A program made the translations under genes and the position numbers. A stretch of 64,000 nt of DNA, taken from contig NW_027266293.1 of the NCBI RefSeq assembly GCF_022045235.1, positions 620,001-684,000 of the forward strand, written 5' to 3'. This DNA is from Haliotis cracherodii (Eukaryota). Below, in pieces: positions 2,338 through 26,500 of the stretch. The notes beneath the pieces were generated by a model. That model was not told where the DNA came from, made no database searches, and saw only the letters and a program-made list of their open reading frames with translations. Position 1 is the first letter of the stretch, and every line of letters starts with the position of its first letter.

Positions 2338-5300
2338 ATGACTGTGACACGTGTGCTCGTTATACTCTGCTCCTTACATGTGCAATGTATAGTGGGTCAG
2401 TCTGTTTCTGTCACTGTTGCTACAGACAAGGAAATAGCAACGATAGATGACCATTTCGTTGGAGTGACAATTGATTCAGCAGAGATACCAATAGCTTTTA
2501 ACTGGGGAGGACTGGATTTACGGTGAGTGTATTAGTTTATTTATGTAGTTTACTGTAGAGAGGATATTTCATGTGTCGAGTGAAATATCACGGGTGAAAA
2601 GGAGATATCTCCTTTTCCTCCGTCACGCGATGAGAGAAATATAATATTTTACGAGACATAAGGAATATTCTTTTTATTTGATACTTTTTGTGTAGTTTGT
2701 CTGCCGGTAAATATTTCATTACAAATGTAAAAACTTGAAACGTAAATTCTCCCTACCTAACACACAGGGATGGTTCACCACGCCTTGTATTTGCAACTGG
2801 AGAAGTGGTTTCGTGTTTGCATAATCTTTAAAAAATATGAAGAAAAGAAGCAAGACATTTTTAGCGGCCCGAAACGTCTCTATCACACATATAGATATGG
2901 TTATATACAAAATCAACTTTAACAAAAAATATACTTGAAAACTACCAAACCGCTGTTGGAAGCGAAATAATACACGCTTGTCAAGAAACAAAACAGCGCT
3001 TTGCGAAACGAAAAGTCTCGATTGACGAGTTAAGTGGAAATTTACAGTATATAACGAAACAGTCTTTAAGAGAATAACGAACGACCTGAAGCGATATTAC
3101 CTCCATAAATGGCAACAGTGAAATATCAAGTGTTATGTTCAGTGCAGTGAAATATCAATTGCTATGTTCACTGCAAAGAAAATATCAAACTCAGTCTTTC
3201 ACACTTAAGTATATGATAAAACATTATACACTCGTGCCTCGTTTATACGGACACTTGCGTCATTTCACAATTCGTCCGTATAAACGAATTTCCGTATAAC
3301 TGAAACCTGCTTCTTACTGGAAGAGTTAATGGAAGAGCGGCATTGTCCATTAAAAGAATAACACGCCTACCTCGAAAACACTTCTGCCTGTCAAAGGGCT
3401 GCAACAAATCAGAAAAGAGTTCTGATGTCATCCACGCTTTTGTATTGTTGCGGTACCTGACATGAAGCTAGGGATTGTAACAACCACTGAAACATCGGGG
3501 TCGTCGAGCTTTTCCTATCACAAATGGCTTAACTTTCTCAGAACCGTCTGCATTCGCACACAGAGCCACACTAACAGGCTCCTTGGATCGTTTCGTACCA
3601 CTAACAGGCTTGGACGCAAGTGTCTGATTTGGTCCCAACTTAAAAAACCATGTATATCATACGAATATGGTGAATAATCGTTCGCGTTTGAAAAAGAACA
3701 AATCATTTTGATGATATTTTATTTGAAATTAATTTTCTAGTTCACCCAAAGTGCGGACGCTTGCTAAGGCGTTATCCCCGAGCTATCTGAGAATAGGCGG
3801 AACTGCTGGAGACTTCAATACCTTTGACCCAACGGGTCATGGGGGTACAAGTGCAAACTCCACTTTTACTGGTATGTTTATATGACTTATATGATAAATA
3901 TGATACATCGTTTTGGGAGTATTCAATGCCAGAAAAATGAATGATGTTCAACTTGGTCATAACATTCATCAAGTGATAAGGTTCCTTCACCGTGACATCG
4001 TTTTGAGTCGTTAGGGATTTACACTGCTTATAATAATCCTGACGCCATCGAGAGTCTGTGAAATCTGCAGTTAAGGTAGAGCAGAGGTCTCAAGAATTGT
4101 CACAGTCAATGATTAGGAATGTAATCTGTACTGAATCCTGCTTTAACTGCTGTAGTAAGATCATATGCAAACCCCTGACATTGATTCCGTCAGTAAGTAT
4201 AAGGTAAAATATAGCTGAAAGCAGCAATGTCGGGCTCCGTTGACACAAAAGCACGGCCTTGGGATTTTGGTGGTATCTGGAACGCAACTTTCTACATACG
4301 CAAACAACATTTGAACATAATCGGGCAAATGAGTGGACGAGAAGCGGTGCTTACACAATGGTGTGGGCGTGGACGACACAAAACGACAGTTTCAATACCA
4401 CTAGCGCTGAGCAAATGAGCTTCAGTAACTGCTTGAATGAAGGAAGGAATTGACTTTACTGCCGTTCCTGCGGACGCTCAAACGTAGCCAAAGACGGGAA
4501 CCCGAAGCCCGCTTAGCAAGGGCTCTCCGACTCGGTTTGGGTTGACACGGCCGCTCGCTGACTCGGCTTATGTAGCACACGGTGTAGAACACCAGGAACC
4601 GCCGCTATGAAATTGGCGTGTGCCAGTGTGTCCAGGGTTGTTCTACAGAGTGTTCCTCCATGTTAGAATCCTCGAAGGGTTTGCTTGTACCAATGCTATC
4701 CAACGTAAGGCCCCGAAGCAAATGCCTATTGGAAAATGAATACATGCATCAACCAATGCAGCAAGAATGACCACCCGATACCGAAAGTCACCGCTTACGA
4801 CAAGACAAGCATGGGTTTGCTGAAGACCAGTTCTAAACCTGTTCTTCACGGGTAATATACATAAAACGGACGACATTTGCGACAAGATTGTGTATTGCTC
4901 TTGGCTCTCTAATTAGCCAGCGAACGGGGGTTAAACTATAATTGTGGGGCGCTTATTAGAAGTAGTACTCAATTAGAGTACTAACTTGAATCAAACATAA
5001 CATAACATTTGCAATGCAAACAAAACCAAAACAGATATGATATTTAACGTAAAATTTATGAGAAATAAATTATCAAAATCAAAATCCAATATGTCCGCTA
5101 CTAAAAAGATATCCCAAACCTGCAATCCATATTTGATGTGGCATGTATTGAGAAAATTCTCAGAGGGTTTGGAAGCTTTTTATGCAGTTGATTCAGAGAG
5201 TATGGATGTAAAGACATGTACCAAACCACACTGTGAAACCTTGAATCCAATATGGCGACTAAACCACGTGACCGATGACCAAAGACAAAGAACAAAAAAT

Positions 5301-8300
5301 GTCAAGCACCTAAAGCAGCAAACACATTCAGAGTGAGTGAGTGAGTGAAATTTAACGTCACATCTGCAATACTTTAGCCATATCGTAACGAAACAATTAT
5401 AATAATTATATTTAGATTAAAAAAGGTGCCAACGATGGACAGAAGTATAACTATAGTATCACATTTTCTATTTTACAACTAGTTGAGAACAGTTAAAAGA
5501 ATACACTTTCAATCGGGCTAAAATTGGGCTATAGATCACCAGTAACCAAAGTAAGGCCACCTTACTTGGGACCGTGGGGACTTACCATTCAAAGAGTGTA
5601 AGTAATCAGACCAGCGATTGCAGACAGTAGGGCGACATATATCATCAAAACCTACTTGTTTTTAGTTATCTGCCCTTCGTCATTGTGCCTACGGATTTTG
5701 GCGGAAGCTAGTATCTTGTGGTAATTTTTTGCTATCCCTGGTCCAAAAATCAGTTTACACTGATTACAATAGGCCAATGTTCAAAATTGAACTCCGTGTC
5801 AATCAATGATCTGCTTTACATTTGTTTAAATGAATATTTATTGTTTTCAAAAGAAGGACATATAGGGGTTATCACATGTGTGTTTTGGGATGGTAAATAT
5901 GTTCTATGAGGAATGAACATTGTACTTAAAAAGTACATAGTTTTTAACATCCAAGCTCAAACAACCACGATAGCCACTTTATATTATAATGTTTTTCATG
6001 AATCTATATCGAAACTTTCCTTTGAATGTGCGCACTAAAATATTAGGTCGCAATGCCAGTGATTAGTCAGTCGAAACAGGCAGTGAAGATATTTGTTTTC
6101 TGACACCGATATTCGGTTTCGATAGCGACATGCTTCTAAAAGCGTTTCTGCACGTGAACACTATCTTCGGAGAGAGGCATACCCGGACGTTGGTTTTGTG
6201 GTGGTATCTAACTTAAACTAAGACGGTCAGTGTGTCTTTCGAGAACATTTCTATTGAACTGAACAAAGAATGACTTCTTAATATTAATTCTGACTCGATC
6301 GCTGATAAAGAAGAGCGACGCCATGTTTGTTCGCAAAGACTGAGTACCTACATGTACGTGACATTATGTTACTTGTTTATCCGGGTTTATATATCCATTG
6401 GCTTCATTCCGCTGAGAAATGTACCCATAAAAAATCTATTTTATCATTGAGGTGCCATATGGGACAATCTGAATGACTTTGTGAGGGCCGTGGGATGGGA
6501 CTTGGTGTTTGGCCTCAATGTATTGAAGCGGAAAGACGGACAGTGGGACCCTGAAAACGCCAAAGAACTGATGAGCTATAGCTATGCCAGGAACTACAAG
6601 ATGCCCGCATTTGAACTCGGAAATGGTAACAGTTCTACAGCTCATTGAATAGAACATACAACGTAACATATTTGTGGATGATATTATACTTCACCAAGTA
6701 TGTATAGTTGTACCTAGGTCATTCCTCCGTATTTACTACTTATGCGCGTTATTCTTCAATCTCAAAGTCAAAAAGTGTAGAGCATGACGAACATATGTAC
6801 TGTAACGACCATAATCATATTCTTGATATTATAATCTAGTTTCTTTGGTCTCTAGAACCTGAATATTTCCCCGAACCCTTCACCAATACAATTTCTGGAG
6901 CACAGCTTGGGCGAGATTTTGTCCATCTTAGGGAAATCCTCAAGTCTACTCCTGGGTTCGAATCCACGCTGGTGATTGGACCAGATGTAACAGGTATCTC
7001 AGGACCGAGATCCATATTGTTCGAGAAGTAAGTAGAAACGTGCAAAACAGTGTTCAAAATTGTATCTGGGTTAGAGCATCATCATGGGGGTTGTTAAATT
7101 AAAATTAAAATGTGATGCCTCATGGTACACAACTGCTATATTACAGCAATGTGATAAACGATATATAGATGACCCATGCACCACTCCAGTACATCATATT
7201 CAGTCCCATGTCCCATGTTCCATACCGAAAACGGATTTTGAAACGAGTTTGATACTGGGATTCCTATTGACTATTTTACAGTTTCTTCAAAGGTGAAGGA
7301 AGCAAAGCTGTTGACAGAATCACCTTTCACCAGTGAGTTTTAAGCTATTTCAGTTTCTTACTTTTTTATCTAATTATGTGTTTGTAACCACACATGTAAC
7401 GGCACTACGTTTGTCAACCATTGCAGTAGGGACACCTAAAAATGAACTTTTCTTTGCGTTGGATTTGAAATGTTTGAATGTTTAGGTACTATGCCTACGA
7501 AGTCGGTGTTACAGTGGACACCTGTCTCAATCCCAAGGTGCTGGACAGCCTGATATCTGACATCCATAGAGTGCGTAACGTCACCGCTCCCTCCAACCCC
7601 GACACTCCCGTTTGGCTTGGGGAGACATCGTCCTTCTATGGCGGGGGAGCACCTGATATATCTGATAGATATGTTGCAGGTTTTCTGTGAGTATTGTCTG
7701 TCTACTTTATTTTCGTAGCGAAACGAATTTGTAGTGCGCGAGTTGGGGGCTGAGTAACTTACGCCGCTTTAAGCACTATTCAATCAATATCACGGCAGGG
7801 AACACCAGAAATGGTCTTCATAGAAGTTTCCAATGTGAGGATTTCGAACCTGGGTCTACAGAGTGACGACCGAATGGTTTATCAATTGGCCACTTTATAG
7901 TGCATTGATGTTCGCTTACGAGACAGTTAGAAACTATAGGGGTGCGGATTGTAAAGAAGGTATTCTAGGCAATCAGTCAATTGCCTGAATGGCAACCACC
8001 TGATCCTCATGCGCATTGTATCCCAATTGCGTGGATCGATGCTCATGTCAATCAATGGATTGTCTGGTCCAGACTCGATTATTTACAGACCGCCGCCATA
8101 TAGCTGGAATATTGCTGTGTGCGGACTTGAATAAAAAACAACCAAACCAAACTCATGCTGCTGAGGTTATATTTAGTACCAGCTTCCCTCCGGGTATTGA
8201 CCATATGGACCTGGACATTGCAGAATACACAGACACACATAAAAGACTGAGGATACAGTTGGTATACATTCTTGTCTTGTTAATGATGTTGAAGCAGGAG

Positions 8301-14509: not shown

Positions 14510-17500
14510 TTACTGGCTACTGCAGGAGGCTACGTTAGCCTCAGGGAAGACGAGGAACCCGAATGACTTCCCGGGGAAGGTGATGGTGTTTTCTTCTGTC
14601 CTGTAAGGTTTCAGCTCCGGCAGCGAGTTATTGACAAGGTCAAGCTGCTTGTTGTTCAAGGCCACCTTCCTAACATAATAAAAACAGAGAACTGAACATG
14701 AGGTGACATGCTACATTGTGAACGATTACAGTTTGTAACTTTCATGTATCACATGTGCATGTTATGGTAAGCCAATACATATATGATAATTTCACGAATG
14801 GTTTTCTGTGGTTTTCAAGAAGAAAGTACCCACTTACTCTTACAACCTGCAACTCATTCATATATTAGTGTAAAAGTTAGTTTGGGAAATAACATACTAG
14901 TGACATCGATTGGTGTGAACCAAAGGACGTCTGGTGAGTCCAAGGACAAGTGTGAACTAGACGACTTCTATACCTTGGCTGGGGATCTTACCTGCTAGTG
15001 AGTTCATCGACTGGCGTCAACCAGAACACGTCTACAGGTTGGTCGGGATCTTATTTGCTAGTGAGTCCATCGAGTGGCGTCAACCAGAACACGTCTACAG
15101 GTTGGTTAGGATCTTACTTGCTAGTGAGTCCATCGACTGGCGTCAACCAGAACACGTCTACAGGTTGGTTGGGATCTTACTTGCTAGTGAGTCCATCGAC
15201 TGGCGTCAACCAGAAAACGTCTACAGGTTGGTTGGGATCTTACTTGCTAGTGAGTCCATCGACTGGCGTCAACCAGAACACGTCTACAGGTTGGTTGGGA
15301 TCTTATTTGCTAGTGAGTCCATCGACTGGCGTCAACCAGAACACGTCTACAGGTTGGTTGGGATCTTATTTGCTAGTGAGTTCATCGACTGGCGTCAACC
15401 AGAACACGTCTACAGGTTGGTTGGGATCTTACTTGCTAGTGAGTCCATCGACTGGCGTCAACCAGAACACGTCTACAGGTTGGTCGGGATCTTACATGCT
15501 AGTGAGTCCATCGACTGGCGTCAACCAGAACACGTCTACAGGTTGGCCGGGAAACTGTGGGAACGTTATGGAGGTGTTGTTGTCTGTGGTCAGCAGGAAG
15601 TACATCGTCACACCGCCGGGCATGTAGCCATAGGAACTAAAACACAACACTAAGTATTAGCAGACTAATTCACTTTGCATGTAAATGAACTCACATGGTA
15701 TCGTGATTGCGGACGGAAGGAGAACTATGTTACCACGTGAATTACAAATAAAGGAAAATGAGGACAAATGGTCATCAATAATGTTGCCGCTTCCATCCGT
15801 TCCCCGTCCGCGTCATATCAGAAGACGTCAAAAGATGGCACTTGTTGTTACCCTGTAACCCGCAATAATCTTATGTTAAACCCTGTTTTATGGTATCTCA
15901 CCTCACATAGCCTTTATCTCATTCGATAGTTTGTTATTATGAATGTTCGTGTTTGTAGCCTGATGCATTACGATGTCTGGTTACAGCTGTGATATTGGTT
16001 GTCAAGTTACATGGATGTCTTTGTGCAGTGGGCGTAGGCCCTGATGGTGCTGTTGTCCACGGTCGCCTCTACTGAAAACACGGCGCCTCCCACGAGTCTC
16101 TTATACAGGACGGTTAACCAGTAGTCCTGCAGTAAAATAAACTTTAATCAGATTGACTAAAACCAAATCATCATTTGTCATTAATATAGATGTAAAAATA
16201 AAGCAAACATGAAATGCAACTACATTTTGCTATGTGAAACGTTCACTTTTTTCTTAAGGTATTTAGGTTGTGGCATATACAGAAGAGAGCGTCTTGGAAG
16301 AGGAAAGGCATTATCACACTGACTAAGCTGAAATATTGATTATTGTAACATGTTTTCAATATTTCAGCTCAGTCAGTTCGATTATTTTTATTCTCATTCT
16401 CCACTCATATCTGGTCATGTTTTCAACTTATACATTAGTTTTCATCGATACATGAGATGATAGTGAAGATAATTGTTTGCTAACATAGACGTCTATATGT
16501 CCGCATGAGCAATCTTGCAGCAATTAGTGAGTGAGTGAATATGGTTTTACGCCGCAATATTCCAGCAATATCACGGCGGGGGACACCAGGAATGGTCTTC
16601 ATACATTGTACCCATGTCGGGATTCGAACCCGGGTCTTCGGCGTGACGAGCGAACGCTTTAACCACTAGGCTACCCGACCGCTCCTGCAGCAATTAGGCT
16701 TCATAATCCTTACAAGATGGCTAATGATTTCATTCCATGAGATAAATGCACAACACTCAACCCACTTTGACGACTGACGACTGTTGCAGAATTATTAGTC
16801 ACGATTACATGGTCGTGATTTACTCATACCTGTATATACAACGTCAATGCTGGAGAATAACCAGTCTCGATTTTAAAAACGAAATAGATTCCATTTGGCT
16901 TGAAGTCAACATAAAGGTGAATCTATATTAATGCAGTACTGAAAATCAGTGATTGTGTTTTTTATAGATGCTACATATATGTCTGATATTCCCAGTGTAC
17001 CTCCATTATAACAGGAGGATGTCTCCCCAAGCCAGAGTAAGTGGGCTGGTACGTCTTGACACATCCATAGCTGTCTCTATATAACTGACCTGGTGATCCG
17101 TCAACACGGAAACGGTAAAATCAGAGTGTGCAGTATGATTGATCACTGAAAGTCAGAAAGGACACCAGGAGGAAAGAACTGTCCAGAAGTTGTGACGTCG
17201 TGTAAATGTATATTCAAGAAAGACATAAGAAATCTGGTCGGTTCTGTACTTACAGGCAATGGCTCAAACGTATCATTGTCAATAAGTCCATAGCTTGCTG
17301 CGTAGAAATCCTGTCTGAGAACTGCTTCCAATCCCATCCGAGCAGCAACACCAAGCTTGTCCAGCCACCTGAACAGTGTACACTTTCAACAGGCGGTGTA
17401 TATGTTGCATTTAAACACACACGTCTATTCTATTACATCACAACCGTCCTCACATCCGAAGAAAAATCTTATCTAGGTGTCATCTCGTCATATCTTTAAT

Positions 17501-20500
17501 ATTTCAGCCCTACATAGAGGAGATGAACCAATATTCATTATCAGTACTAAGGTAGGAAGTGTATATGCTAAAGTTGTACGCACAGAAACCCAGCGACATA
17601 TCTGTCTGAGATTCCCGGTGCACCGCCATGATAACAGGAGGATGTTTCTCCCAGCCAGACTGGGGTAAGGGGGTTGGTGCGTCTTGTCACATCCAACGCC
17701 GTCTCTATATTACTGACCAGGTTATCCATTAACTTGGAATCGGTAAAATCTGTGAGGTTTGCAGTTTCGCCATTGGTGTAGTATCTGTGAGAAACATCGA
17801 TAGGTTTGATGACCATTGTTCATCTTCTTTGGTTGGTAGGAAATGTCACAAACAGGTAAAATATGTACATATACTTGGTGGCATGGCTTACGTTATTCAC
17901 TCAGTTAAGACCTGTGATGATAAACATAGATGGATGACTTTTTTAGAGCAGAAGGTAAATTTCCTGTGTAATATTGCATTTGTGGACTTTCCTAGATTCA
18001 AATTGGGCGATGTGTCAGTATTCCAGAAACTTTATACAAATCATTTTATAACTACAAACATAATATTTGACCATTCACTTAATGAATAACCGCTACAGGT
18101 TTACTAATCTAGAACAATACATAGATTTTAAAGTGAACAACCTACTGGTGAAAAGTTATCCTGTCCACAGCCTTGTCTCCCCCTCCTGTGAAGAAACTGA
18201 GGAAACAAAGTGGGCAGTGTTGTGTGAGTTGCTGTAATCTGTTATGTCTTCAAACAGCGATTGTTCATGTATGTTACTTCAAACCATAAATCGAACTCTA
18301 CGTGACAAACTGACGACTACGAAGGTAGGTTTTGTCTCTTCACAACACAACGGATATTTCTAAAGCAACCACGTGAGATAAACCAGTACTATACGTATTT
18401 CAGAACAAAAGGGACTACGATTCTACATCCATAATTATCCAAATTGATATATCACAATGACTTGGTGGCTACAAAAAGCATCAGGTTATTATGATATATT
18501 AATTATTTAGGTAAAATGTTTTCTACTAGGTTGTCGTGGTGTTTCTTTCTAATTGCCATCGGCTGCTGTAACAATGGGTCCACCATCGTGTTACACGAGC
18601 AGGTGGTGCATTTGTTTGTGTTCGGGTGTTATGTTTTGCGACCAGGATTGAGGTTTACTCTTTTGTCAAACTTTACACAAAGATTGTAAATGGCATAACG
18701 CGACATGGTTCATGTAAACTGTATGGCCACGACCCTTACATAAATTCAGTGACGACATTGTCAGTTCAGTCTACTTACTCAGCAAAGAACTGTGATTTTG
18801 CTCCAGTTACAGAGGCCATGTCAGGTCCGATAACTGGTGTCACCTCATACCCTGGTGTCGATCGGAGCAGCTTCTTGAAGGTATAGAAGTCCTTACCTAA
18901 CTGACTGCCGCTGACAGTGATGTTATATTGCCCAGGGAATATGTCAGGTTCTGTAACCAGTTACACTTCTCAATAAATGCCACTAGATGTTATTGGCAAG
19001 TCATAAATCTTGTAAAATTGTGATATTTTCCTTGATTTTTTTTGTATGAAATTAAAGGGCAAAAGGTAATTTCTCAGATTCACGAAAGAAATGTCATCAG
19101 ATGTTCAAACGTTTTGGCACATTTATTTTTATATATTTATTGGTTGTATATTGAATTCATATATATATATATATATATTGAATTAGTTATACACATACCG
19201 TTTCCGAGTTCAAAACCTGCCAGCTGGTACCCCTTCGCACTGTTGTATTGCAGCAGTTCCTTTGCGTTAGTGGGATCCCACTGTCCCTCCTTCCTCTTGA
19301 GGGCGTTCAGACCGAATATAAACTTCCAGTTCACATCCTTCGCAAATGTATTTACAGCATCCCAGGTAGCTCCTGCAGATACAACTGTAGTAACAGCACC
19401 CAAACACATCAGGTAGCTCCTGCAGATACAACTGTAGTAACAGCACCCAAACACATCAGGTAGCTCCTGCAGATACAACTGTAGTAACAGCACCCAAACA
19501 CATCAGGTAGCTCCTGCAGATACAACTGTAGTAACAGCACCCAAACACATCAGGTAGCTCCTGCAGATACAACTGTAGTACCAGCACCCAAACACATCAT
19601 GTAGCTCCTGCAGATACAACTGTAGTAACAGCACCAAAACACATCAGGTAGCTCTTGCAGATACAACTGTAGTAACAGCACCCAAACACACCAGGTAGCT
19701 CCTGCAGATACAACTGTAGCAACAGCACCCAAACACATCAGGTAGCTCCTGCAGATACAACTGTAGTAACAGCACCCAAACACATCAGGTAGCTCCTGCA
19801 GATACACCTGTAGCAACAGCACCCAAACACATCAGGTAGCTCCTGCAGATACAACTGTAGTAACAGCACCCAAACACATCATGTAGATCCTGCAGATACA
19901 ACTGTAGTAACTGCACCCAAACACATCAGGTAGCTCCTGCAGATACAACTGTAGTAACATCACCCAAACACATCATGTAGCTCCTGCAGATACAACTGTA
20001 GTAACAGCACCCAAACACATCAGGTAGCTCCTGCAGATACAACTGTAGTAACATCACCCAAACACATCAGGTAGCTCCTGCAGATGCAACTGTAGTAACA
20101 GCACCCAAACACATCATGTAGCTCCTGCAGATACAACTGTAGTTACAACACCCAAACACATCAGGTAGCTCCTGCAGATACAACTGTAGTACCAGCACCC
20201 AAACACATCAGGTAGCTCCTGCAGATACAACTGTAGTACCAGCACCCAAACACATCAGGTAGCTCATGCAGATACAACTGTAGTAACAGCACCAAAACAC
20301 ATCAGGTAGCTCTTGCAGATACAACTGTAGTAACAGCACCCAAACACATCAGGTAGCTCCTGCAGATACAACTGTAGTAACAGCACCCAAACACATCAGG
20401 TAGCTCCTGCAGATACACCTGTAATAACAGCACCCAAACACACCAGGTAGCTCCTGCAGATACAACTGTAGTAACAGCACCCAAACACACCAGGTAGATC

Positions 20501-23500
20501 CTGCAGATACAACTGTAGTAACAGCACCCAAACACATCTGATGCTCCAATATTTGATCGACCTCTTATCCTACCTCAGTGACAATAAAATCAAAGGTTTA
20601 TCCATCCGCAATACAACAACATGACAAACTATATATATCTTTAGTAGATGTACGCACCTGTAAATGAACGTTTGACATCTACTGTGCCATTACCGGTAGG
20701 GTCAAAGGTCAGGCCATCACCTTCAGTTCCTCCAATCCTCAGATAGCATGGAGACAAGCCTTTAGCCAGAGCCTGAACTTTTTGAGAGCTGGAGGTAAAG
20801 CAATAGCGTGATACACGACATATGTCATAAATAATTGAGCAGGTATATACGTACTATACCACATGCCTTGTATACCTATTCAAAGAGAATACCATTTATC
20901 TAAATACATTAACGAACAACAGAAGTAGCATCATGCATTTATTTACATTTAGTACTAACTACTAAATGACTTTATCGCGCGTATCCAAACCATGGGCTAA
21001 TTACGTCTGTAACCCAATCACCCCTCGTAACTCAATCACCCCGGGCCACCACTCGGCACCGTGCCCGGGGAATAATCCCGCGCAAGCATCATCCCACCCT
21101 TTGTTAGTCCGTCATTCGCGAGCAGCCCTTCCTCAAGTACACACGTGTGTCACTGTATCTAATCGCTTTCCCACTTTACGTTTCCTTTGTACCCAGTCGC
21201 GAACGTTTCGCCGATTACGCTTTGAATACCACCTATTCCAACACTCGCCGTATCTCATTTACACAATCGCGACCGTTTCGCCGATTACGCTTTGAATACC
21301 ATCTATTTCAGCACTCGCCGTATCGCATTTATTCCGCTCTACTCCCGAACTTCACCCTCGGGACAATTTACGCTTGTGGAATACCAACTCACCACCCCGA
21401 CTTTTCGTGATGCCTCCCAAGAGAAGAGCAACCGTCAACCACAAGCTTGTGAGGGGAGCCAAGCAGGCCAGGACAACCAGAAGACAAACCCCGGGAGTAC
21501 ACATTGTACAGGAGACAACAGCTGATGGTGAGTCTGCCAATTACGGAAATATCGAAGGTGGCAACAGAATTAACGTACAATCGGTGCAGCTTGTAAATGC
21601 CGCGCAGGTTGCCAACTCGGCTACCCAGGTAAACGAGCAACTGGGAAAAATACTCCAGTTGCTGGAACATTCAGCTCCCGGCCCGGTTAGCGCAAACCAA
21701 CAGGTAAGGCTTGGTTTTAGTTCTCCCGCCATTTCGCCCAACATAGGGAGAATCCCCGATGCGCACAACGAGGCCGACGGTGACGCGGCCCCAGCCAATC
21801 ACATCGCCGGATACGGGGATTCCCTTTCCTTTCGTGCGGACGGAATAGACGCGCACGTCAAGCAACAGGTGAGGGAAAAAATCTGGCGTGGCGAGTATGT
21901 CGACCTCGGCACAATACTACCAAACACCGAGGGAAGTCACGAGGACGGTACGATTACCATGGCGTATGACTCCTCAGGTAAGGTAATTTTTAAACCAATA
22001 AAACAGCAACCAAAGCGCCTGTCCCTGGCAAGCTAGACTTCAGCTTTCCACATTTTCATGTGTACTTACGTTAGTAGGCACTCCGAGGTCCGCACAACCC
22101 AGGGGTTGCTGTCCTACATGGAAACCATAAGAACGGCGGCACTTCGATTCGAGGGGGGGATGCCTGGTCAACCTACGACCAACAATTACGACACAGAATG
22201 TCAAGGGACCCCTCACGACGCTGGGAAAACATCGACGGGGAGTTGTGGCTGAAGTACATGGTAACACAGCCGGTACTACAACCAGAATCAGGCGGACGGG
22301 GCGCAATGACACGCGTACAGGGGGACATCGCCAGTCAGGTATGCTGGGATTTCAATAAATTTGGCTGTAGCAGGGTCAACTGTAAGTACACTCACAAACG
22401 CGGTAAGTGTGGCAAACATTCCCATAGCTCTAGGACCTGCTTTCGAGGGAATGGGGTCCAACCGACCCCATACAAGCCCAATCCGCCCTTTCCTAACAGA
22501 AAACCAGCCGGCAAGGCAGGTAAATTCAATGGCCCCTTCCCCCGTGGATCTCAATGAAATGGCACCCTGGTTACGCCAATATGCTAGGGTCAATTACAGA
22601 GATGCAAATTATTTATGGGTAGGTTTTAGCTTTGGCTTTAAGGTCGAGTTCCAGGGAAGCCGCACGGGTCGCCTGGCACGAAACTTGCGATCAGCCACAC
22701 ACCAAGATACGGCAGGCTACGTGAAACAAAAACTACAAAAGGAAGTCGACCTTGGCAGGATGGCGGGCCCCTTCAAGGACACCCCCCTAGACAACCTCCA
22801 AGTATCCCCAATAGGCCTGGTGCCCAAGAAGCAGCCAGGATATGGTCAGCACCTGGGTAAGCATGCGGAGGAATTCCGTCTAATTCACCATCTATCCTAT
22901 CCCAGGGGTAAATCTATAAATGACTTCATAGACACAGAGGCCTGCTCCGTTTTGTACGCCAGATTTGATGAAGCTACCCAGATGGTGCAACAACTGGGAA
23001 AGGGAGCATTACTAGCAAAATTCGACATTCAGTTGGCCTTTAGAATTATACCAGTCCACCCATCCGATTTCGAGCTGCTAGGCATCAGATTCGAAGGTGA
23101 GTTCTATTTCGATAAATGCTTACCATTTGGCTGCTCCATATCTTGTGCCATATTTGAAACGTTTAGTACCTTCTTGCAATGGTGCATGCAATCGCATCTT
23201 CCAACGTGTCCGGTCATGCATTACCTGGATGACTTCCTAACGGGGGGCACAGCAGGCACCAGCCACTGCTCAGACAACCTCAACGGATGCGTGAATACAC
23301 TTGAACAGCTTGGGGTTCCTATTGCGCACGACAAGACGGTGGGCCCCACAACCAAACTGACATTCCTAGGGCTGGAAATCGACACCATTGCAATGCAGAT
23401 CAGAATCCCAGAGCCCAAGATCAAGGAGGCAACAAGGGAAATCCAAGACATCCTGTCAACAGGTAACATCAAGGTCACAAAAAGGGCCCTTCAGTCCCTC

Positions 23501-26500
23501 ATAGGCAAGCTTAACTTTATGTGCAGGGCTATACCAATGGCAAGGGCATTCAGCCGCAGGCTAATCGATCTGCTTAGCAAAGGTAAGCAACCATTTCACC
23601 ACATTAGGATTACCAGCTGGGTCAAGGAAGACCTACAAATGTGGTTAACATTTCTTACGAGTTATAACGGCATTTCAGTGTTTCAGGACCAACTATGGGT
23701 GGACAGCGATTTCCTCCAGCTGTTTTCAGACGCAGCGGGTGGCGCCGGCTTTGGGGCCTACATGCAGGGCAAATGGTTTAACGGCGCATGGCCACCCCAG
23801 TGGGTGACGGATGGAACTACACGGGACTTGACGCTCCTGGAGCTGTTCCCCATCACACTGGCCATCCAAATCTGGGGCAAGCAACTCGCAAACAAAAAGG
23901 TCCTCTTTTACTGCGACAACCAAGCCGTCGTAACAATAATCAACAAGCAGTCAACCAAGGCCCCCAGAGTGATGAGCCTACTCCGTCCCCTAATCCTGCA
24001 GTGTCTCCGATATAATATTATGTTTAAGGCAAAGTATGTATGTTCCACTGCTAACACTATTGCCGATGCTCTCTCGAGGTTTCAGCTCAAACGCTTCCGA
24101 GAGGCAGCACCAGCCGCGGACCAGAACCCCACACCTATCCCGTGCAACATATGGCTGATCTGAGGCAGGAAGCCGGCAGACTCCTACAACAATCTCTGTC
24201 TACTAATACATGGGCCACTTACCAAACAGGCATCAATGCCTTGCACCAGTTCCGGTCCGCACACCAGCTACAAGAGGTGTGGCCAGTCCCGCTGGATCAG
24301 GTCGTAAACTTTATTGCTTATCTGTCAGTCACTCACCACTCCCCTAACACAGTCAAGACTTACATTGCAGCGCTGTCTTCACACCACAAATTCCACAGGC
24401 TCACCGACTGTACAAACCATTTCCTGGTAGGCAAGATTGTAACCGGCTTACACAAATCAGCGGGCCGACCAGACACCAGAAAACCGATCACTGCAGATCT
24501 GCTGCAGGTAGTAACCAACAATCTGCCTCACGTATGCTCATCAGCATATGAAGCCAGGCTGTTCAAGGCAGTCTACTGCACAGCCTTCTTCGGTTTCTTT
24601 AGGGTTAGCGAACTCGTCCAAACTGGACCCTCAAAAACAGGTTGCGCCATCCAGAATTTAAGCTTCTCGGGCAACCCCCAGCAGCTTTCAATCCATTTAC
24701 CACACTCAAAGTCTGATCAGTACAGGATGGGGACAACAGTTACAACGTCACCTATACCAGGTAATCCGCTATGTCCGGTAGTCGCCATCAAGCACTACCT
24801 GGAGGCGCGCCCCTCCGGCCCACAACATGCATTCGTCAACTTTGACCATTCCCCCGTTACAAGGTACCAATTCCAGGCACTCCTAAAAAAGGCCTTAGCA
24901 CACAGCAACATAAACACGGCCTGCTATTCTTCGCACTCCTTCCGCATTGGGGCAGCCACATCAGCAGCCATGAACGGGGTGCCTGAACACCTCATACAAC
25001 AATACGGCAGGTGGAAATCAGATTGCTACAATGCTTACATACGCTTACCAACAAATTCAATGTTGTACAATTAAATCAAATAGTCTTTCATGGTACTTAC
25101 TACACTTCTTATTGTTTACAGTTTGGATGGTGGGATCCAGCTACATGGCCAGGGCACGGCAGTACTTGCTCCTGAAGGGCACCAGCCCAAACCAACCGAG
25201 GATGCTATGGCTGGCACGAGGGGGGATGAGGTGGAAGGAGCTGGACACCATTCTGGATGCACAGGTCAAGGCGACACGGCGCAGCCCCAGAGCCCTCATC
25301 ATTCACCTGGGCTCCAACGACCTGTGCTCGGTCAAAGGCAGCCAACTCTACCTTGACATGGTGGCATCAATCCTTCGGATACAACTCCAGCTTCCTGACA
25401 CCAAGATCATCGTATCCTCAATGCTGCCCAGGTGCTACTGGCACGATGCCAGGGATCCACGAAAGATCGAGGGGATGCGGAAGAATATCAACCGCCGACT
25501 GACCAACCGAGTCAAAGAGCTCGGCGGTACAACAGTGCCACATCCCCAGATCCTGGCATCTGACAAGACATGGTACGCCTGGGAGGGCGTCCACCTCAGT
25601 GACGAAGGACTGTGTGTGTTTACGGACAATTTATTGCATGCCCTGGCGCTCGTTTTGCGCCAGTAAGGATATTATCTCCACAGGTTAGTGTTTCCTTTCA
25701 GTACATAAGCAAGCCGGGCAACAATGCTATCTCCGCGTATCGCGTGGCCGTGGGTGTGGGGTAGCACTCTGGTGCTTTGTGGCGGGGTTCTTGTGGGCTA
25801 CACTGCTAGTAACAAATTAACTTGCTTCCAAATTAATACTCGTGCTTAAGGCTACCTGTTTTTCAGCGGGAACCTTTCCGGGGTTACCTGCTTCTCAGTG
25901 GGAACCTTGTCTTTCCCGACTTTTCAGCCGGGGAATCGTAGAATAACATACGTTGGGGCAAACAGTTGCCACGTATATGGGCCCGGCGGCGGAAGTCGTC
26001 TTGTCAAGCGGTAGCTGACAGTTGGGTCCGCGGCGGGAGCCGCACAATGGTTTTGCTAATGGGGCCGGGCAGTGGGATCTGCTTTGGCCGGCTACCTGGG
26101 GCCGGGCAGCGGCAGTCTGACTTAGGCCAGCAGCGTGGAGCTGCTTTTGGCAACGTGGGAGTTGCCAAGCAATGGTAGCGTTTAAATATGCTACCGTGGG
26201 TGCCGGACATCGGTAGCAGTCTCAGGCCAGCAGCGCTAGCTGCAATCGCCGTCGGCCACGCGCGTGGACATGGCAACGGTAGCATTTTTGGTATATACAA
26301 TTAGCAGCTAAGTAGCCCACTAGTACCTGCACACCCTCGGCCATTTAACCCAATCTCATCTTCTGTTTTATTACAGGCACGGGCACCAACGGCTCGGTGG
26401 CCCGTGCCTCTCCTTGGCATATCACGGGATAATATATATATTTTTTTTTTTTTCTGTGATAAACGGCTTGGAAATCATTATTATTGTAGACTTCTGCTTT

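Follow-up and report, generated by a model that had tools for sequence, protein, structure and literature searches.

A conserved and used splice acceptor ahead of the SGNH hydrolase in a Ngaro-like element of Haliotis cracherodii, probably joined to a basic gag leader

Retroelements that carry an esterase are known from several orders, and we compared them with a Ngaro-like element found in a 64,000-nucleotide (nt) stretch of Haliotis cracherodii DNA (NCBI RefSeq assembly GCF_022045235.1, contig NW_027266293.1, positions 620,001 to 684,000; hereafter the window). The closest described systems are DIRS-53_XT and DIRS-54_XT of Xenopus, which are Ngaro-like elements with an SGNH open reading frame (ORF) whose hydrolase function is unproven (PMC9210276). 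In long terminal repeat (LTR) elements, ORF3 products typically come from a spliced message, and some of them, including those of rotifer LTR elements, are GDSL esterases (PMC5408684). In the ORF1 protein (ORF1p) of ZfL2-1, the esterase is active and is accompanied by an arginine-rich motif; the basic motif was proposed to bind RNA and the esterase to have a lipid role (PMC3905857).

The window element shares with the Xenopus elements the order gag, reverse transcriptase (RT) plus RNase H, tyrosine recombinase (YR) and SGNH, as well as the lack of a methyltransferase (PMC9210276). Its ORFs follow this Ngaro order on a single strand, and no Dam family match at E<=0.1 was found after the RNase H domain, with pol ending at 24163. 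We assigned the element as Ngaro-like from this gene layout, which matches hydrolase-bearing Ngaro elements (PMC9210276). The Xenopus elements have split direct repeats; in the window element these are partly shown, with one A and one B repeat in this copy. The ORFs of the Xenopus elements were treated as overlapping frames, whereas in the molluscan element SGNH lies behind a conserved acceptor (PMC9210276). Retroviral env and LTR ORF3 are alike in being 3' accessory ORFs expressed from a spliced message (PMC5408684), but those elements belong to the LTR order and carry a DDE integrase in place of the YR. The window element also differs from them in that the donor lies inside gag and would give a coding leader, and in that YR is probably expressed by the same route. 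The ORF1p of ZfL2-1 and CR1-clade long interspersed nuclear elements (LINEs) similarly has a basic stretch and an SGNH esterase in one protein, although this is a single unspliced ORF1 with a coiled coil, and gag and YR are absent (PMC3905857).

We consider it likely that the esterase of this element comes from a subgenomic mRNA, in which phase-1 splicing links a basic N-terminal gag exon with an acceptor just before SGNH motif 1, giving a leader-esterase fusion. That a gag-leader-esterase mRNA exists in this group of elements is well supported; for the window's particular family, its production and its absence appear about equally probable. The SGNH acceptor itself (...TTATTGTTTACAG/TT, boundary 25121/25122) is real and used. 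The SGNH domain starts at 25122 in all nine RefSeq models examined, which come from the three closest clusters (six loci, H. rufescens); the closest named proteins to the window SGNH ORF were Haliotis RefSeq models with 86-96% identity. The boundary ranked first among the 274 AG dinucleotides in 21410-25666 by a simple pyrimidine-tract score. An earlier note on this DNA had placed the acceptor where SGNH homology begins, and it indeed lies 2 nt ahead of the Trp in SGNH block I. The donor named there, GATG/GTGAGT at 21527/21528, falls at phase 1 in the gag ORF, which starts at ATG 21410, and the claimed in-frame join was borne out, with exons 21410-21527 (118 nt) and 25122-25666 (545 nt) giving 220 amino acids (aa) without a stop.

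The acceptor and its phase were conserved across distant relatives. A metagenome scan yielded 36 loci, from which four without a tblastn match (L034-L037) and seven in which the block I pattern was not found (L009, L018, L019, L023, L028, L029 and L031) were dropped; the remaining 25 loci and the window formed 17 families at <60% identity. A viral scan yielded one locus (L001), with no tblastn match to the element. All 17 families (binomial p 7.7e-9, for an expected share of 1/3) and 24 of the 26 loci had their best acceptor <=45 nt from block I in phase 1. The 304 control windows were spread over the three phases (111/107/86) and had a mean score of 6.8, compared with 10.7 at the SGNH acceptors. 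In the two exceptions, L025 and L026, a slightly better AG was located upstream of an in-frame stop, and the phase-1 site was also kept. YR lay directly upstream of SGNH in 12 of the 17 families.

The protein behind the acceptor retained the features of an SGNH hydrolase. The catalytic residues S6, G34, N65 and H157 (blocks I, II, III and V) were invariant in 16 aligned sequences, and in the window the DxxH motif has Glu as the acid ahead of the catalytic His. The predicted SGNH fold had a predicted local distance difference test (pLDDT) value of 95 and template modelling (TM) scores of ~0.7-0.8 to acylhydrolases, sialate O-acetylesterase, platelet-activating factor acetylhydrolase (PAF-AH) and TesA. 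It also matched the ZfL2-1 ORF1p esterase (PDB 4c1b) with an E value of 8.8e-6 at 20% identity. By this modelling, the window domain is a predicted SGNH esterase.

The fusion of a gag leader with this domain is annotated at full length in a sister abalone family. The best match outside the window family, among 1.84 billion representatives, was P0024, a H. cracherodii RefSeq protein of 224 aa that occurs in identical form under three accessions on three contigs and has 54% identity in the domain. Its basic leader of 42 aa ends in AD and is joined to VWMVGSS. Residues 1-42 align, up to the join and no further, with residues 1-42 of a gag from H. rubra at 64% identity (E 1e-13). Past this point, the H. 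rubra gag continues with GEF and the window gag with GES, both of which fit a GTGAGT donor. Without intron reads, a gene model leaving out gag, pol and YR would seem unlikely to arise.

Further fusions came from more distant sources. In L018, 6.9 kb of genomic-looking DNA from another animal, positions 5118-5870 hold an open 250-aa ORF with a basic leader joined to SGNH. This ORF resembles L033 and L027, both of which are elements with YR, and also L030, the likeness beginning at their acceptor CAG. This copy reads as a spliced mRNA likely copied back to DNA, a precise deletion being the alternative. Models of similar build, with basic leaders that do not by themselves imply a gag origin, were found in oyster, mussels, another snail and lizards; one oyster protein, P0174, derives from a 1136-nt Logan contig. 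SGNH models from Xenopus and one fish had other long leaders. Among the 62 matches with leaders of 25-700 aa, 17 had a basic start, a count that has no control and, outside Haliotis, reflects basicity only, not gag homology. In L028 (363-847), also genomic-looking DNA, a leader start adjoins internal SGNH with the junction itself missing, and this is likely a retrocopy. Related SGNH domains also occurred in long host-type proteins, some of which contain several of these domains (L007 4036-4677, P0025, P0029, P0081, P0126 and P0147). L007 retains the phase-1 acceptor, and domestication of the SGNH exon in L007 and the host-type proteins is possible.

The gag leader may serve more than one enzyme. 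The earlier note did not include another phase-1 acceptor, CAG 24085/24086, which lies 65 nt ahead of the YR start. The spacing was also 65 nt in L002, L004, L017, L022, L032 and L033, and in L006 it was 59 nt; L027 has a frameshift at this place, and in L024 the site was recognised by eye. Within 150 nt, it was the top site in six of nine loci. The Gln codon of the SRFQ motif was CAG in all eight families, compared with 58 of 116 background Gln codons. The YR frame was open from the SRFQ acceptor, compared with 30% of control windows, and the first Met of YR was at residue 16-144 in five of eight loci. Joined to this site, the gag leader gives an in-frame product of 368 aa. YR in Ngaro-like elements is probably expressed by splicing to the gag leader, which would be spliced onto it via this SRFQ acceptor. 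No RNA junction at this acceptor was seen in the contig joints. The candidate pol acceptor was not clearly conserved: among relatives, the best site had phase 1 in L022 but phase 0 in L004, and was degenerate in L009, so its conservation must be regarded as weak.

Several observations weigh against the joining of a gag leader to SGNH. Donor 21528 was the first strong donor in gag, but its score of 5.8, which rests on generic donor frequencies, was exceeded at 21704 (7.4), 21869 (6.9) and 21978 (7.4); the splice scores were ad hoc and were devised after the sequences had been viewed. Conservation of the sites and of their phase, which the earlier note had named as a check, held for the acceptor but only partly for the donor, as a phase-1 donor above threshold was present in one of three distant gags (L004, not L022 or L009). 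For P0024, a leader search for the gag of its own family returned only P0024 itself among two candidates. With regard to the YR acceptor, SRFQ is a conserved protein motif, so its pyrimidine tract is partly forced. Within the window family, donor 21528 was read through in 12 of 12 RefSeq gag models (P0016 having been excluded from this set as unrelated), and contigs of runs X1 and X7 crossed it unbroken. The junction predicted by the earlier note was not found there: the leader-SGNH join was present in 0 of 9 SGNH and 0 of 12 gag RefSeq models, which are themselves predictions whose read support is not visible, and, of 21 joints in the contigs of four runs (X1, X5, X7 and X8), none of the 18 that could be identified ran from 21527 to 25122. 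None of these runs is recorded as RNA; X5 is RNA as judged by a spliced host intron, X7 shows a GT-AG gag joint, and X1 and X8 are undecided. The proposal of expression by a subgenomic mRNA therefore stands as regards the use of the acceptor and the exact product type, which is annotated in the sister abalone family of P0024, while the direct join was unobserved in the window family.

These data lead to the strongest alternative, which we nevertheless regard as unlikely: in the window family the esterase would be made from RNAs spliced from 24276 or 24300 to 25122 and translated from ATG 24210 into 203 aa with a non-basic leader, the gag donor being unused for SGNH. All nine RefSeq SGNH models follow this route, with N-termini that lie within YR, from 24210 or 24236 on. 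The 24276/25122 junction occurred in contigs of a sister family, ~86% alike, in X5 and X7, with matching loose ends in X8; it was not listed among the X1 contigs. The frame from 24210 is also open for the whole 203 aa. However, the YR donors are weak, with scores of 3.1 (24277) and -3.1 (24301), and ATG 24210 sits downstream of the out-of-frame YR ATG 24151. No YR-type leader was recognised by eye among the distant matches. If these RNAs start with the leader spliced to 24086, the gag frame of the three-exon RNA ends at only 120 aa, so that they resemble a by-product of the YR mRNA, and an annotator would choose the longer ORF from 24210. Because the protein models show no 5' exons, the gag donor may still act upstream in the window family. 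On the preferred reading of a gag-leader-esterase mRNA, this family, too, would produce the protein of 220 aa, perhaps in small amounts or confined to certain tissues, the RNAs that were observed being spliced from the weak YR donors. One sister-family contig with the YR-to-SGNH splice (X5 record 13, 1718 nt) aligns with the window from 24121 onward. Its first 193 letters have no place there and are sharply bounded near 24107/24108; the contig has small indels at the same depth, and may be either a spliced RNA or a processed non-autonomous copy.

That SGNH is expressed from an RNA without splicing, through leaky scanning or reinitiation at ATG 25031 or 25127 or by a frameshift from YR, is very improbable. 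The window SGNH frame is open from 24974 and includes both ATGs, and an in-frame ATG was present in 6 of the 17 families. In the other 11, however, an in-frame stop lies upstream with no ATG from there to block I, so the SGNH ORF cannot start there unaided, and this route leaves the phase-1 acceptor of all 17 families unexplained.

Removal of the 97-nt intron in gag shortens Gag to ~208 aa, ending ahead of the zinc finger, and is possibly a damping splice. The splices seen in the window family either delete the larger part of YR or change the frame of gag, but there is hardly any likelihood that all splices are cryptic or host-imposed, damping the element by removing most of YR and shortening Gag without a useful product, since cryptic sites should not hold one phase and place through 17 families, the SGNH catalytic residues are invariant and the P0024 fusion is full length. 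The window copy also has a stop in gag at 22034-22036 and a frameshift near 22151. The proposed splice does skip both lesions, as was claimed, but this has no evidential value, because contigs of four of four runs differ at each place and the lesions are private to the window copy.

Table 1. Positions in the window of the Ngaro-like element, its ORFs, repeats and splice sites, and of the surrounding host intron
Feature	Position	Strand	Basis
Host intron, GT-AG, 5.96 kb, element antisense within	20789..26752	-	joint 20788 to 26754 in X5 contigs; sites read in sequence
Ngaro-like element	~20943-26425	+	contigs and sequence
Left terminal repeat A	20943..21174	+	X1 and X7 contigs begin at 20943, fork at 21174
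gag ORF, C-terminal CCCH-like zinc finger, broken in window copy	21410..22557	+	ORF and domain search; longer homologues P0011, P0015
gag leader exon, 39 aa, 9 Lys/Arg, 2 Asp/Glu	21410..21527	+	sequence; homologous to P0024 leader and gag P0013 aa 1-42
Predicted phase-1 donor GTGAGT	21528..21533	+	sequence; equivalent position is the join in P0024
97-nt GT-AG gag intron	21978..22074	+	removed in 9/12 family RefSeq gag models; joint in X7 contig
Candidate phase-1 pol acceptor	22482..22499	+	fourth-ranked of 274 AGs; leader joins in frame (22499/22500)
pol ORF, RT and RNase H	22532..24163	+	Pfam RVT_1 E 6.5e-14
Predicted phase-1 acceptor for YR, within RNase H SRFQ codons	24068..24085	+	sequence; conserved in relatives
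YR ORF	24151..25074	+	N-terminal SAM-like domain; Pfam Phage_integrase E 4e-8
Donor GTGTGG within YR, seen spliced to 25122	24277..24282	+	6/9 RefSeq SGNH models; sister-family contigs (X5, X7)
Weak donor GTCGTA within YR, seen spliced to 25122	24301..24306	+	3/9 RefSeq SGNH models
SGNH splice acceptor, pyrimidine tract and CAG, phase 1	25095..25121	+	sequence, RefSeq models, contigs, conservation
SGNH hydrolase exon	25122..25666	+	Pfam Lipase_GDSL_2 E 4.7e-8
Right repeat B	25782..26425	+	contig coverage stops near 26425

The coordinates are collected in Table 1. The host gene around the element belongs to family GH79, as a downstream exon matched Glyco_hydro_79n (E 4e-12), and is presumably of the kind named heparanase-like. 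The window copy consists of A and B with A2 missing, and no second A repeat was found within the window. Contigs showed an A-spacer-B form; of the split-repeat order A1-ORFs-B1-A2-B2 of Ngaro elements, the B1-A2 joint was not seen there. One X8 contig connected 21174 directly to 25782, and contigs of X1, X5 and X7 had a different sequence, containing AATAAA, ahead of 25782 or 25784. The loss of A2 in the window copy looks as if it arose by recombination between B1 and B2. Direct repeats 3' of SGNH were also present in the relatives L016 and L008. In L009 (138-3044), SGNH is followed after ~1.1 kb by gag and pol, which resembles a collapsed or tandem split-repeat element. The 5' untranslated part of the window element has a 70-nt tandem duplication (21172-21311), and 119 nt are missing there in one X8 contig. 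Elsewhere in the window, tandem arrays have units of 47 nt (19222-20696), 41 nt (31031-32396) and 63 nt (14919-15615), and short interspersed repeats are scattered across the window in many copies.

The spliced expression of a 3' ORF is already a standard principle in LTR elements, while a conserved SGNH acceptor with gag-leader splicing was not found described in the literature searched. The available text of PMC9210276 has no occurrence of 'splic' or 'intron', and the accessible parts of that paper and of PMC3783388, PMC8547959, PMC4157794 and PMC7192593 describe no native splicing of Ngaro or DIRS ORFs. Our literature search returned no report of a gag-leader-SGNH splice, in agreement with the earlier note, which knew of none; Poulter and Butler 2015, Goodwin and Poulter 2004 or Repbase may mention it.

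By analogy with ZfL2-1 ORF1p alone, the basic leader might tie the esterase to the element RNA or a Gag particle, and the esterase might contact lipid or membrane. Going further, we tentatively suggest, as a scheme with somewhat less than an even chance of being correct, that animal Ngaro elements have a full retrovirus-like splicing programme. In this programme one basic gag leader would be spliced in phase 1 to acceptors ahead of pol, YR and SGNH, tagging each enzyme for the RNA or particle. The leader-esterase would be the counterpart of env and LINE ORF1p and bring the particle to membranes, and its mRNA would be retrocopied, seeding stand-alone SGNH genes.

The conserved phase-1 acceptor bears on the expression of the downstream, overlapping ORFs in elements of the DIRS order and on the role of the Ngaro hydrolase, and it names the actual protein, a gag leader plus esterase. 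Leader splicing would explain why YR is often without a start codon, and many of the SGNH gene models labelled 'uncharacterized' in molluscs, fish, frogs and lizards would be accounted for. It also points to convergence with the LINE ORF1p esterases.

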